A DNA stretch of 37,343 nt, from the NCBI GenBank assembly GCA_035256305.1, contig DATEYH010000138.1:1-37343 (forward strand). Direction: 5' to 3'. The notes beneath the pieces are model-generated. The model made no database searches, was not told the DNA's origin, and saw nothing but the letters and a program-made list of their open reading frames with translations. The stretch is from Candidatus Nanoarchaeia archaeon (GTDB lineage Archaea; Nanobdellota; Nanobdellia; Woesearchaeales; SM23-78). This document shows, in pieces, positions 28,023 through 34,391 of this stretch (positions within the stretch are counted from its first letter, which is position 1; each line of letters starts with the position of its first letter). The position numbers and the translations under genes are program-made.

Positions 28023-28555
28023 TTAAGAATAAAACAAAAATTCTTTTTTATATTTAATTTTGAAACATAATTTCTTAGAAATAATAAATTAATGATAGCT
28101 GTTCATAGGAATCAACAACCAAGGTTGTTGAGCCAAAAATTCTGAGGAATTTTTGTGCATCATAGTCTTTGCTTCTCAGAGCCAATTCTCTGATTTGATT
28201 GTTAAATGAGAGATTGGACTTATTAGTGGCTGCATGCTGAGCACCTTGTTGCCTTGGTGCGTACACACCAGCTCTATCAACCCGATCTTCTATCGGCGTC
28301 CATGAGCGTCTCTTTTCAAGGATGGCTTCATACTTAGATGCTTTCAGTATTTATCCATGTAAAGCGTAGCTGCCCGGCCTACCCTGTCGGATAACCGGTC
28401 GACCAGAGGCTTCGGGCCCTCGTTCCTCTCGTACTAAAGGTCCCTTCCTTTCAGACACCCAACACTTCCAGTAGATATCAAACAAACTGCCTCGCAGCGT
28501 TCTGAACCCAGCTCACGATCCCTTTTGATAGGTGAACACCCTCACCCTTGGCCGC

Positions 28556-28588
28556 ATACAGTACCTTCTTACTTTCGCAAAAAGGTTA
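28556..28588 (-). other. 33-nt BHB-type mini-intron in 23S domain V (hairpin after GAUGUCGGCU)
   Basis: Outer helix GGCCG/CGGCC, central helix GCAG/CUGU, bulges AAU and AUG, inner helix ACCUU/AAGGU. Removal gives CCGUGCAGAAGCGGCC, the conserved archaeal LSU sequence as I recall it. Confidence 0.6.
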
Positions 28589-28852
28589 TTCTGCACGGCC
28601 AGGATAGGAAGAGCCGACATCTATGTAGCAAACCGCGCCGTCGATAGGAGCTCTCGGGCGCGACAACTCTGTTATCCCCGGAGTAACTTTTCGGTCGGTA
28701 CCGTCCCCCATTCAAGGAGGAACGGCAGTTCGTTAGGCCCAACTTTCGTTTCTGGTATTCTTCTTATTCAAATACCAGTCAGGCTGGCTTTTGCCCTTAC
28801 ACTCAACATCGGATTTCTGACCCGACTGAGCCAACCTTGGGGCGCCACTGAT

Positions 28853-28897
28853 ATAAAGCGAGCATAGACAAGCTTTATCAAGCAATCTATTGCTCAT
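28853..28897 (-). other. 45-nt BHB-type mini-intron in 23S domain V
   Basis: Textbook helix-bulge-helix-bulge-helix: GCCGCUGA/UCAGUGGC, central AAAG/CUUU, two AUA bulges, inner helix UGAGCA-UAGA/UCUAUGCUCG. Removal gives GCUGAAAAGAUAUCAGUGGC. Confidence 0.75.
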
Positions 28898-29233
28898 ATC
28901 TTTTCAGCGGCGTGCCACCCCAGCCAAACTGTCCACCTGCCGGTGTCCAAGTCACAAGGACTTGTGAGCAGCGTAAAACCAGATGAGTAGTGTTACATCG
29001 ACGTCTAAACCTGCACTTGCATGCAAGCCTCAAACAACTCCTACTTACTCTATACACCCGGTCTCACGTTGCAGCAACAGGCTACAGTAAAGTTTCACGG
29101 GGTCTTCGCTTCCCACTGGAAGTCTCTGGTCTTTGCACCAGAACAAAATTTTCAGAGGGTTCCGGTTGGGGACAGTGGAGATCTCGTTACGCCATTCATG
29201 CAGGCCGTCAATCAAACGGCAAGGCATTTCGCT

Positions 29234-30005
29234 CACATCTGTTACTTCCCTTAAAATTTAAGGTACTGACCTTCTCTTTAAGGCGGACAAGCATTTCTAC
29301 TAGTTGCTCAAAAATCTCAAATGATTTTTGGCAACCCCAAAACCACATGGTTTTGATGTCTCCTCACATCGCTATGAGGGTCGGACTATATCTTAACACT
29401 CATCAAAGAGTGTTTTTGGCGTATAGTCTCTGAGGATTCTAGACGCCTTATGACTTTTCGGTTCATCTCAGAAGCAAGTTCAGCTATTTTCTCTAAGCCT
29501 GCTCTTGACAAGTGCTCCTTTTTATTCATAATCCCTAATATTTGTGCAAAGAGTTCAAAGCTATTCTTCTTAGAAGTTTGAAGAGGATTTTCATTTATGA
29601 ACTGAACTATACGGTTCAGGTTGTCTAATCCTCTCACTCGGAACTCTTTCCTATCTCCGTTATTCACAGTTACGCTTCCAAAACCAAAATATGACTTGAT
29701 TCTGTGAAGTACTGCTTCATCGCGTTGATGTTGCACTATCCTTAATTCAGGGAGTACCTGCCATTTTAAGGTCATTTTCTCTAATCTATTAATAGACACA
29801 TGAAAACAACCTTCTCCATCAATGAATCCGACAATCCACTTAGCATCCAGTCTTTCCTGCTGATTATCTGCACCTATCACTTTTTCACCCTGACAACATA
29901 TAAACGTTTTAATTTAAATAGCTCACGTTAATATGTCCAGTGGTAGTGTAGGACTCTCAGACGTCCCAGCATATAGCCAGATTGTTTAAGGCAACTTCTG
30001 TGCTT
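29234..30005 (-). mobile_element. group I intron (772 nt) in 23S domain IV, carrying a LAGLIDADG homing endonuclease ORF
   Basis: Interrupts CUUAAGGU|AGCGAAAUGCC. The 5' exon ends in U, paired as U.G in a 7-bp P1 with internal guide GCCUUAA 13 nt into the intron. The intron ends in G. AAGAUAUAGUCCGACC (the classical S/P7 3' element) follows the ORF, with candidate P7 partner GGACAUAU. Confidence 0.75.
29386..29880 (-). CDS. LAGLIDADG homing endonuclease (single-motif type)
   Basis: KWIVGFIDGEGCFHVSI motif near the N-terminus; 164 aa; GTG start; sits inside the intron and its stop codon lies within the AAGAUAUAGUCC core element. Confidence 0.85.
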   Translation of the reverse strand: MIGADNQQERLDAKWIVGFIDGEGCFHVSINRLEKMTLKWQVLPELRIVQHQRDEAVLHRIKSYFGFGSVTVNNGDRKEFRVRGLDNLNRIVQFINENPLQTSKKNSFELFAQILGIMNKKEHLSRAGLEKIAELASEMNRKVIRRLESSETIRQKHSLMSVKI

Positions 30006-30837
30006 ACCTTAAGAGAGTTATAGTTACTCCCGCCGTTTACCTGTCCTTCGTTCCCTTGGATGGGATTTTCAGATACAGGCACTGGGCAGACGTCACCGAC
30101 TATTCTAGCCCTTACGGGTTGGCAGTCGGTTAAGTTTTTGTTAAACAGTCGGACCTCCTTTGTTACTGTGCCTTACACTCGCATTCTTATGAATACAAGT
30201 GTAGGGACCCCTTAGACCGAAGGCTTGGGGCTAATTTGCCGAATTCCCTCAACCAGATTGTCCCTTCTCGCCGTGGGCTTCTCACCCAGGGGCACCTGTG
30301 CCGGTGCTGGGTATAGACATAAAGGATTTTTCCCTGTTCCCTTTTCAAGGGCTCCGGGTATTAGCTGAACAATACTTAAGTACTGCTGTTCTAAGAGTTG
30401 ACCAGGTTCTCATCGTTACGATACTCCCCTGACCTGCCCTTATTAACAATCCCGACGGGGATTGTCAGCCTAACCAGAAGCGTCAGGAACAAGGCTTGCG
30501 TTACCGCACATACCAATATGGTACAGGAATATTAACCTGTTTCCCTTTCCTCTACTAGCTCAAGTTATGAGCTGAGTTAGGACTAACTTACCCTTGGCTG
30601 ATCTGCATTGCCAAGGAACCCTTGCCCTTTCAGCGACACTGATTCTCACAGTGCTAAGTTCTTACTATTACCAGGATTCTCATTCCTGCAAGATTGACCT
30701 CTCCTCTCGGAGAAGCTTCTGCTCTAGCAGGACGCCTACCTACCGCAACGCTTGCGCGTGCCAGCGGTCTCGGTGACTGATTTAGCCCCGTCCATCTTAG
30801 GCGCTCATAACCTCGAAGAGTAAGCTGTTACGCACTT

Positions 30838-30870
<33 letters not shown>

Positions 30871-32235
30871 CGCTGTCTTTGGTTATGAACAACCTTCACC
30901 CTTTCACACTTAACCAATGCTTAGGGACCTTAACCGCTGTCTGGGTTGTTCCCCTCTCGCGCATCACCCTTACGACGATGCGCCGTCTCCTGAGGTCTAC
31001 AGTGCATGGGACTTTGGAGTTGGACAAAGAACCGACCACTTTCGCGGCCTAAATCCTAAATCCGTAGCTCTACCTCCCAGGCAACCTCGCTCAGGGCTTG
31101 ACTGCAGCCAACTTCGGTAGGAACCAGCTATCGCCGAACTCGATTGGCTTTTTACCCCTACGCTCAAGTTAGAAGAACATTTGTACATAGAACCTCTGCA
31201 GGCCTCCACCCTTCTTTAGAAGGGCTTCACCTTACCCAAGTGTAGTTCGTCCGGCTTCGGGTCTGGTCCGAGTGACTAAAGGCGCTTTCACACCTCTCCC
31301 CTCGCATGCTGCGGGATATTGCTTTCGCTTTGGATGCCCATTGATTAATGGTTATCCTTGCCACTCAGACAAACTCCCTGGCTCGTTATTCTAAACGCAC
31401 GATACACAGCCGAAGCTGCGTATCCCGCTGTATCTACTAGGTTTCAAGTTCTATTTGACTCTCTGTCAAGAGTTCTTTTCAGCTTTCCCTCACGGTACTG
31501 GTTCGCTATCGGACTCAAAACGTGTTTAGGGTTAGGAGTTGATGCCTCCTAGCTTCGCACCTAGTATCCAGTAGGTGCTACTCAAGATACTGCCACGCCT
31601 CCCTGACTCCCTCTACGGGACTATCACCCTCTATGGTACTTCTTTCCAGAAGACTTTGAGTCATCAGGGTAAGGTCTAAAAGACAGTCTTACAAATCCAC
31701 ATCCCATCTCATTTTTCAATGAAAGGTTCAGATTGCCCTTTGCTGCTTTCGCTCTCTGCTAATAACAGCATCCTTAGTTTAGTTTCTCTTCCTGCAGGTA
31801 CTAAGACGTTTCAGTTCCCTGCGTATAGCTAGCCTTTCGGCTTCAAAGCGAAGTCGCATTCAGAAATCCCTGGTTCAACCCCTGCGTGCGGGTCGCCAAG
31901 GCTTTTCGTGGCTTGCCACGTCCTTCTTCGCCGTCTTGAGCCAAGCTATCCTCCTAGTAGAGTATTTTCTCTCAGAACTTAGCAATCATTTCAGAGACTT
32001 ATCTCTGTGTTGCAAAGACCAATAATTTCCTATGAACAGCCTTCATTAAACATGAGTAAATGAATATTGGTCGACATGAAAAAGCATGTCTTCTCGTGTT
32101 CTGAGCTTCTTCACCCAGCAAGTCTTAGTTGCCGAGCTGCTAATAAAAAATTGAATATGAAATGTAAGTGGACTCTGCGACAACAAAAATCGCGAAGCGA
32201 TTTTTGAGTCCTCGAGTCCATCTCACTTCGTTCGA

Positions 32236-32377: not shown

Positions 32378-33224
32378 ATGCCGGGGGTATAATCCCCTTT
32401 TGCTCCTGTGAATAGCAAAAAAATAATGTGGTAGGAGAAGAACTAGCCTAACAAGATTCTAATATTTATATAAAAAATTATAGGAGGTGATCCCACCGCA
32501 GGTTCCCCTACGGTGACCTTGTGACGACTTAACCCATCTCACTGAACTCAGGTTCAACACAACCAAGAAAGCTGTGTTTCACCTAAACCCTGCTCGATTG
32601 GTTTGACGGGCGGTGTGTGCAAGAGACAGGGACATATTCACCGGACTATGCTAAAATCCGATTACTAGGGATTCCATCGTCACGAGGCTGAGTTACAAGC
32701 CTCGATCTGAACTAAGATATGGTTTAGAGGTTTAGCTCCCCCTTTCGGGGTGGCATCCCATTGTCCATACCATTGTTGCGCGCGTGTAGCCTAGAGCATT
32801 CGGAGCATACAGACCTACCGTAGCCTGCACCTTCCTCCCTGTTTCCAGGGCAGTCCCCTCAAAGTGCTCAATCCATCCGTGGATGTTGTTAGCAATAGAG
32901 GGTACAGGTCTCGCTCGTTGCCAGACTTAACTGGACGCTTCACAGCACGAGCTGGCGACGGCCATGCACTACCTCTCGGCTTGTCAGGTAATGTCTTCAG
33001 CATGACCTTCATTCTGCCGTCGGCTCTAGTGAGGTTCTCTGCGTTGAGTTAGATTGAACCGCACGCCGCACCCCTTGTGGTGTCTCCCCGCCAATTCCTT
33101 AAAGTTTCAGCCTTGCGACCGTACTTCCCTGGTGGCGAGCTTAACGACTTCTCTTCGACACTGCGCATCCTCGTGGGGTGCGCAATACCTTGCTCGCAGC
33201 GTTTACAGCTAGGACTACTCGGGT

Positions 33225-33368
33225 AATTAGCACCTTTATTTCCATAACGTATCAGAATTTGCAATGGATTGTAGTAATTTTTTCTTGGCAAAAACAAATC
33301 GTTCAGTGGGTTTTAACGAAGTTAAAATCCCACATTGCATTTTTTGGTACAGCTTTGATTAAAGGTGT
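33225..33368 (-). other. 144-nt BHB-type intron in 16S, inside the GGAUUAGAUACCC block
   Basis: Central helix UUAG/CUAA, bulges AUA and UUA, 8-bp inner helix CACCUUUA/UAAAGGUG. Cutting after the 2nd bulge nt restores GGAUUAGAU|ACCCGAGUAGUCC. Contains a 12-bp UUCG-capped hairpin. Confidence 0.8.
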
Positions 33369-33852
33369 ATCTAATCCGTTTTGCTCCCCTAGCTTTCGTT
33401 CCTCACAGTCGGACCCGTCCTGGCCAGATGCCTTCGCCATTGGTAGTCCTCCCTGGATTAACCCATTTTACCGGTACCCAAGGAATACTTCTGACCTCTT
33501 CCGGTCCCGAGTCTTGTAGTGTCCTCTGCACGCCGACAGGTTAAGCCTGCCGATTTCACAAAGGATTTTCAAGACCTGCTACGAACGCTTTAGACCCAAT
33601 AATCGTGATGACCACTTGGGGCGCTGGGGTTACCGCGGCGGCTGGCACCAGTCTTGCCCACCCCTTATTCGCCAAGCTTTTTACACATGGCAAAAGCCTA
33701 TCAATGATAAGCACTTGGGATCCCCTTCTCACACTTGCGTGCATTGGAAAGGTTTCGCGCCTGCTGCACCCCGTGGGGCTGGGACCAGTATCTCAGTGTC
33801 CCTCTCCGGGCTCCCACTCTCATGGCCCGTACGGATCCTAGGTTTGGTGGTC

Positions 33853-33896
33853 TTGTAAGCGCCAGCTTACAACCCAAAAGGGTTAGCTTTTGCGTG
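33853..33896 (-). other. 44-nt BHB-type mini-intron in 16S (helix equivalent to E. coli ~255-270)
   Basis: Outer helix UUGGCGGU/ACCACCAA, central helix GUAA/UUAC, bulges UGC and AAG. Removal gives UUGGCGGUGUAAUGGACCACCAA, colinear with the conserved UUGGUGGGGUAACGGCCCACCAA. Confidence 0.65.
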
Positions 33897-34391
33897 CATT
33901 ACACCGCCAACAGCCTAATCCGCCGCCAGTCCATCCTATGGCACGAGTTTAAGGAAGAGCCCATTCCAGGGCTTGTTCCCTATCAGGTATTACCCTCACT
34001 TTCGCGAAGCTATCCCCGACCATAGGGCAGGTTACCGACGTGTTACTGAGCCTTTCGCCTCCATTGCTGGATGACTTGCATGGCTTAATCGGATCCCAAT
34101 AGCAGCAATCTCCCGCAGGATCAACGGGAACTGATTATTTGATTATTCGGCTAAAACTTTAATGAAACTTTATTAGAATTCTGCTAAACAGGATTCTTTC
34201 TCCTACCAGTATACTTGAATAGCTAGTTCAAGCATGAAACAAACTTTTCGAGTTATGCTGATGCAAAAGATGCTTAATCCAGACTTTCGTCGAGATGTTT
34301 TTAATTCTGCATAACTATGGCGCTGATCGCTTGTAGAGAATCAGTGTTTAGATCCTCGCCTGAAAATGCGTGTTTTCAGAGAGTTATAGGG

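Follow-up and report, generated by a model that had tools for sequence, protein, structure and literature searches.

A candidate BHB mini-intron in the helix 91 loop of 23S rRNA and its predicted same-site family in Woesearchaeota

Introduction

Does a 33-nt insert in the loop of helix 91 (H91) of an archaeal 23S rRNA stay in the mature ribosome, or is it removed from the transcript, and if so by which machinery? The question is raised by a stretch of 37,343 nucleotides from Candidatus Nanoarchaeia archaeon (assembly GCA_035256305.1, contig DATEYH010000138.1), which we refer to as the window and which carries an archaeal rRNA operon on its minus strand. The genome from which it comes, referred to here as G000, comprises 1.18 Mb in 165 contigs and is 84% complete, and its kin are Woesearchaeota/Nanoarchaeota MAGs.

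Kjems and Garrett reportedly described two short 23S introns of Staphylothermus marinus in 1991. Small (<50 nt) hairpin BHB introns are known from the rRNA genes of Thermoproteales and Desulfurococcales, where they make up the 'HP' class (Jay & Inskeep, 2015, PMC4496867). [quoted passage not shown] A review covers non-canonical archaeal tRNA introns and 'intron transposition' (PMC4090602), and the substrate range of the splicing endonuclease EndA has also been treated (PMC5829648). The initial annotation of the window, made from the sequence without database searches, had proposed a slightly relaxed, BHB-like mini-intron at the H91 site; here we follow this proposal through the fold of the insert, its relatives at the same site and the gene content of its host.

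Results

A single 23S rRNA gene was found in the assembly (one match), with a length of 3776 nt against the 2987 positions of the Rfam LSU_rRNA_archaea model (RF02540). Alignment of the minus strand of the window to this model leaves 35 nt between GCAG and GCGG where the consensus has 2 (GCAG, in upper case and thus conserved, and gcgg), which amounts to 33 extra nucleotides in the H91 loop. The gap opened in a MAFFT alignment with three intronless relatives spans the same 33 positions, and the coordinates given in the initial annotation are thus exact. On the RNA strand the context reads GAUGUCGGCUCUUCCUAUCCUGGCCGUGCAGAA, then the insert, then GCGGCCAAGGGU. In standard E. coli numbering, which was checked on the RefSeq rrl copy (that copy runs one lower than standard), the insert separates the homologues of A2534 and G2535, and it comes after the sixth base of the loop, with the whole of the H91 loop GCAGAA preserved on its 5' side. 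Removal of the 33 nt gives GUGCAGAAGCGG, which is both the Rfam archaeal consensus and the sequence of the intronless relatives, and so bears out exactly the archaeal consensus that had been given in the annotation; at the H91 site the intronless relatives read GUGCAGAAGC. A shift of the boundaries by one nucleotide in either direction loses the consensus GCAGAAGCGG, and the limits of the insert are therefore unambiguous. The 23S of this organism has flanking variants of its own, for example GGGUGAGGGUGUUCACCUAUC. Because this is the sole 23S copy and the insert interrupts a core helix next to the peptidyl-transferase centre, the gene would need the insert to be removed.

Table 1. Positions of the features discussed in the text. 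An arrow marks a predicted cut; positions are those of the window unless a contig is named.
Feature	Position	Strand	Basis or remark
Archaeal rRNA operon	window	minus	23S and 16S genes
23S rRNA gene	28202..31977	minus	full-length cmscan match to RF02540, 2393.8 bits
Complete helix 91; its outer helix, CC..GGCCGU / GCGGCC..GG, surrounds the putative intron	28545..28603	minus	Rfam structure line <<--<<<<<____>>>>>---->>
Putative 33-nt mini-intron UAACCUUUUUGCGAAAGUAAGAAGGUACUGUAU	28556..28588	minus	Rfam alignment and MAFFT gap
Exon strand of the central 4-bp helix, GCAG	28591..28594	minus	partner CUGU 28558-28561, minimum-energy fold
Intron strand of the central helix, CUGU	28558..28561	minus	sole conserved element of the intron family
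5' bulge, A-A↓U	28588..28590	minus	unpaired in the fold
3' bulge, A-U↓G	28555..28557	minus	fold; junction deduced from homologues
Inner hairpin, 10-bp stem ACCUUUUUGC/GUAAGAAGGU with GAAA loop	28563..28586	minus	minimum-energy fold
Putative second mini-intron, 45 nt	28855..28899	minus	MAFFT gap and context fold; boundary ambiguous within repeated AUAU
772-nt intervening sequence	29234..30005	minus	MAFFT gap; homologue of LSU/1931
LAGLIDADG_1 ORF in the 772-nt insert	29386-29880		PF00961, E = 1.6e-25
EndA gene, 239 aa	G000:C15:3347-4063 (L062 1474-2193, -)		PF01974 and PF02778
AACCUUUUUGCGAAAAGGUU repeat copies	C25:3810-3829, C59:2997-3016, C61:17739, C62:3888-3907		
AACCUUUUUGCGAAAAGGUU repeat copies, continued	C64:11561-11580, C79:14718, C72:2345-2359		

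A canonical BHB is cut behind the second nucleotide of each 3-nt bulge, which puts the cuts two nucleotides 3' of the strands of a 4-bp helix. On the minus strand, the minimum-energy fold of positions 28540-28606 reaches -32.7 kcal/mol (z = -6.2), and none of 200 shuffled sequences folded as well. In this fold the exon GCAG, with which the mature H91 hexaloop GCAGAA begins, pairs with CUGU near the 3' end of the insert through one G.U, one C-G, one A-U and one G-C pair. The cut sites follow from the intronless homologues: the position deduced for the 5' cut is between 28589 and 28588, and that for the 3' cut is between 28556 and 28555. These junctions, placed by homology only, read GCAG-AA↓ and CUGU-AU↓, each two nucleotides 3' of a strand of the central helix. 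The alternative registers UGCA/UGUA and, with five pairs, UGCAG/CUGUA were rejected, as the fifth position varies across the family of inserts described below.

The fold departs from the strict hBHBh' form at both bulges. Next to the 5' bulge, an A.A mismatch (28587/28562) separates the inner hairpin from the central helix, and opposite the 3' bulge stands an exon U. The minimum-energy fold closes a pair between this base and the exon G (U28595.G28555), the U.G pair by which the H91 loop is closed in the mature rRNA, and so reduces the 3' bulge to 2 nt; the bulge has 3 nt (AU↓G) only when this pair is open. The relaxed features on which the initial annotation had remarked, a G.U pair in GCAG/CUGU and an A.A mismatch beside the inner helix, are both present in the fold, so that this part of its description stands, to which the flaw at the 3' bulge and the extension of the inner helix to 10 bp are additions. 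On the modelled structure, the H91 insert is best described as a slightly relaxed BHB motif.

We scanned 185,579 species genomes in two passes with exon bases only, requiring CCTGGNNGTGCAGAA and GCNNCCAAGGGTG to be separated by a gap of 12-42 or of 43-73 nt and leaving CUGU unspecified. The two passes found 28 and 20 loci. One of these (L043, JACPBU010000163.1, a Woesearchaeota 23S) has the segment from GCGGCCAAGGGU to GGGGCAGAA duplicated around helices 91-92; it is probably an assembly artefact and was left out of the counts. Together with the relatives, the scan loci yield 48 distinct inserts, 22-153 nt in length, every one of them at the same phosphodiester bond; their interiors cannot be aligned with one another. 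The six nucleotides before the 3' junction are nevertheless shared in form, with CUGU in 43 inserts, UUGU in three and AUGU in two at positions -6 to -3, followed in every case by two variable bases and then the exon G. YUGU, which forms four pairs with the exon GCAG, is thus kept in 46 of the 48. The first base of the insert may be any of the four nucleotides, and the complete loop sequence GCAGAA↓G is intact at every insert. Of the 30 variants in a first set, the inner helix abuts a clean 3-nt 5' bulge in 14, and the others are relaxed. The conservation of CUGU followed by two free bases is indicative of a splice signal, since neither an expansion segment nor a random insertion has any reason to keep such an element.

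The records behind the scan loci carry the labels Woesearchaeota, Nanoarchaeota/Nanoarchaeia, 'uncultured Methanosarcinales' or, unclassified, 'archaeon'. Since three are single-cell genomes, the inserts are not an artefact of binning. Ten loci (L032, L033, L046, L052, L057, L058, L076, L078, L090 and L092) are from ENA 'TPA_asm' MAGs titled 'uncultured Methanosarcinales archaeon' and have a Woesearchaeota-like 23S; L052 is the same contig as that of genome G003, which belongs to the GTDB genus of the window. The Methanosarcinales titles look like mislabels. These observations suggest that the H91 insert belongs to a family of introns that occupies one site in many Woesearchaeota.

The insert comes and goes among close relatives. 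Within the genus, four genomes carry inserts at the H91 site, of 43 nt (G014), 30 nt (G002), 32 nt (G003) and 153 nt (G005), and the site is empty in two others (G001 and G010), as it is in about 14 genomes from other families of the order. We also scanned metagenome and genome contigs for joined exons with genus-specific flanks; the matches are intronless relatives, some of them short, of which two metagenome contigs (L066 and L070) are the closest and the others more distant. These two contigs, at 11 and 246 kb, are hence genomic. They lack all three of the inserts found in the 23S of the window, with which they share 97% identity across its first 1973 nt and 97.4% in the 390 nt surrounding the site. 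The 33-nt insert is thus dispensable, given that the site is empty in both same-genus genomes and in both contigs. In a tree of the flanks (392 aligned rRNA columns) G000 is sister to L066/L070 with support of 99/93, and the genus clade mixes carriers and non-carriers. The tree is poorly resolved and its sampling is biased to intron carriers; the supported branches force at least three changes, and parsimony gives 12. A lineage-wide helix extension shared with relatives that lack the bulges, named at the outset as what would speak against an intron, was looked for in the same-genus genomes and the 97% identical relative and was not found, as these include genomes without an insert at the H91 site. 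One further genome, G015, has two different 23S genes (L011 and L029, on contigs C35 and C31), only one of which has an H91 intron, of 59 nt; they fall in different parts of the flank tree and represent either two divergent operons or contamination of the bin.

With respect to the machinery that would be needed, G000 encodes a single EndA of the simple alpha type, with no beta subunit detected in this 84% complete MAG. Its best match in the PDB is 3IEY_A, the catalytic subunit of Nanoarchaeum equitans (E = 4.7e-41). A tblastn search of the genome with EndA, run to look for a second subunit, returned the gene itself and a low-complexity 52-aa copy on contig C18 only. The protein has an N-terminal extension of about 70 aa, rich in Lys/Glu, ahead of both Pfam endonuclease domains, and it is a 52-aa stretch of this extension that recurs with 94% identity at C18:2291-2446. 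An RtcB ligase (PF01139, E = 1e-173) is encoded on contig C66, and no RNase III domain was found in the 84% complete genome. EndA enzymes of the alpha4 type are classically the strict ones. Several DPANN lineages, on the other hand, have been reported to combine an alpha4-type EndA with many disrupted tRNA genes (PMC5829648), and in view of this report a single-subunit EndA is no strong argument against the cutting of a relaxed BHB.

Two more intervening sequences interrupt the same 23S gene, and the inserts of 772, 45 and 33 nt agree with the view put forward earlier that it contains three such elements of two mechanistic classes. On its modelled structure the 45-nt insert is a textbook BHB, with a central helix AAAG/CUUU and cuts at AAAG-AU↓ and CUUU-AU↓, two nucleotides past each strand; that it obeys the same cutting rule supports a BHB reading of the 33-nt insert. 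The 772-nt insert is probably a group I intron, as it encodes a LAGLIDADG_1 protein and occupies the homologue of LSU/1931, where IB4 introns are listed for Woesearchaeota. Its match to the Intron_gpI model (31.3 bits, E = 5.8e-6) lies below the gathering score of 50, and an Rfam scan at the gathering threshold found no group I intron; a direct reading of the sequence gives a P1 in which GCCUUAA of the intron can pair with UUAAGGU of the 5' exon and places U.G at the splice site, and an intron-terminal G. The 16S gene (32482-34131, minus strand) has 1650 nt against a 1478-position model, with about 170 nt of inserts.

Over its first 15 nt, AACCUUUUUGCGAAA, the intron hairpin is identical to a hairpin repeat, AACCUUUU-UGCG-AAAAGGUU, that is found at six other loci of G000 (on contigs C25, C59, C61, C62, C64 and C72), to which a mismatch-tolerant scan adds one on C79. 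At several loci the AACCUUUUUGCGAAAAGGUU repeat is often followed by a second conserved hairpin, UAYCAAAAAAYUUAAGGAGGA...UCCUCCGAACUA. Among the copies of the repeat, one immediately precedes a dnaK-like start and another is situated within a tRNA gene on C72. The 153-nt insert of G005 (L006/L094, G005:C13:7914-8066) has the same ends as the 33-nt insert, UAACCUUUUUG...AGGUACUGUAU, and from about nt 14 to 121 it consists of a dispersed repeat that has 18 other matches across G005, which makes it a nested insertion. The H91 intron of this genus therefore appears to contain mobile hairpin modules and to have accepted them repeatedly.

Discussion

We read the 33-nt insert as an ORF-less archaeal BHB intron in the H91 loop of 23S rRNA that is spliced out of the transcript, with a probability of roughly 0.8. 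Before splicing, GCAG at the start of the loop would pair with CUGU near the 3' end of the intron; the resulting 4-bp helix would have the bulges AA↓U and AU↓G on either side, with the hairpin of the intron as the inner helix. EndA would then cut after the second base of each bulge, and RtcB would join the exons to give GUGCAGAA-GCGG, thereby freeing the conserved H91 hexaloop; RtcB would probably also circularise the 33-nt intron. That the intron is cut out and its exons ligated, and what becomes of it, we infer from the fold, the pattern across relatives and the genes that the host encodes. The proposal of a BHB mini-intron has gained from the comparison: removal restores the consensus, a 4-bp helix is present with both cuts two nucleotides 3' of its strands, the presence of the insert varies among close relatives, and the 3' element that pairs with the exon is kept in 48 inserts that share the site but are unrelated in other respects. 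Against a strict reading of the motif stand its relaxed form at both bulges, as modelled, and an EndA of the alpha type alone.

The insert might be cut out and the exons never rejoined, leaving a 23S rRNA in two pieces held together in the ribosome. Parallels for cutting without ligation are found in bacterial intervening sequences and in the processed 23S of some Thermococcales, and the evidence for cleavage fits this account equally well, as sequence cannot separate ligation from non-ligation. Processed or permuted archaeal 23S rRNAs exist according to a preprint (bioRxiv 10.64898/2026.03.23.713588). We nevertheless hold this account to be improbable, since the genome encodes RtcB and since the GCAGAA↓G sequence is intact at every insert, which is expected if a continuous hexaloop must be rebuilt. 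The products of BHB cleavage are normal substrates of RtcB. Nor does the insert resemble a bacterial-type intervening sequence, as it has a BHB at its base and no long duplex, and no RNase III gene was found in the 84% complete MAG.

If the hairpin were instead retained in mature ribosomes and extended helix 91 in certain lineages, this would account for a stable hairpin on top of an rRNA helix and for variation in length between lineages, the latter being typical of expansion segments. H91 is not known as an expansion site. The position of the insert is asymmetric, after the sixth loop base and with the full loop kept 5' of it, and same-genus genomes and a 97% identical 23S contig do entirely without it; moreover, the conserved CUGU and its two following bases would sequester the loop bases GCAG, which fits a splice signal and not a functional loop, so that an expansion segment seems highly improbable. 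The resemblance to a BHB could also be incidental, in a recent and damaging insertion of a MITE-like hairpin repeat or in an assembly artefact. The identity of the first 15 nt to a dispersed hairpin repeat of the genome, and the dispersed repeat with 18 other matches inside the 153-nt insert of G005, would agree with such an event. It is scarcely credible, however, for a gene with no other copy in the assembly, and in the face of 48 distinct forms at one bond in independent assemblies and single-cell genomes; random insertions, moreover, would not preserve a CUGU complementary to the exon. BHB splicing remains our preferred reading.

On this sequence-based reading the kind of intron is already known, both as small hairpin BHB introns of rRNA genes and as BHB introns in DPANN LSU genes, and it is the site and the host group that appear to be new. 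The insert resembles the 'HP' class (PMC4496867) in being ORF-less and tens of nucleotides long, in its BHB-framed hairpin with exon bases in the central helix, in its location within a highly conserved rRNA segment and in being present or absent among relatives. It differs from that class in its host, a mesophile-like DPANN archaeon (Woesearchaeota) rather than a hyperthermophilic crenarchaeon, in its relaxed motif, in its site in the H91 loop (2534/2535) and in a hairpin related to a dispersed repeat. With the genes covered in PMC6125680 it shares the host group, the combination of BHB and group I introns in one 23S, and an intron, here of 772 nt, at LSU/1931; that paper centres on group I introns, with BHB introns only in a figure schematic and no H91 mini-intron family described in the accessible text. 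The likeness to non-canonical tRNA introns lies in the proposed use of EndA and RtcB, in relaxed BHBs and in related introns at different sites of one genome, whereas the host gene here is an rRNA gene; kinship with the insert in the C72 tRNA gene consists of the 15-nt identity and nearby similarity only. In the literature searched we found no description of an intron at H91 or LSU/2534, or of this intron family or its hosts.

The link to the dispersed repeat invites a broader and more speculative idea, which we think has a minor chance of being right: that the ORF-less mini-introns of Woesearchaeota rRNA and tRNA genes are carriers or derivatives of a mobile hairpin repeat and not decayed homing-endonuclease introns. 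The repeat would insert into structured RNA genes and survive where a BHB permits its removal by the tRNA-splicing enzyme, and the H91 loop would be a recurrent landing site for it. If true, this would provide a concrete mechanism for the gain and spread of protein-less archaeal introns, and the repeat link is a testable lead on their origin.

In these organisms, inserts of this kind defeat rRNA-based primers and probes as well as the automated annotation of rRNA. The candidate intron would add an insertion site, the H91 loop next to the peptidyl-transferase centre, and the DPANN Woesearchaeota as hosts to what is known of archaeal rRNA introns, and its 48 variants may represent a natural series which suggests that the splicing enzyme needs only a 4-bp helix between exon and intron together with the spacing of the cuts.
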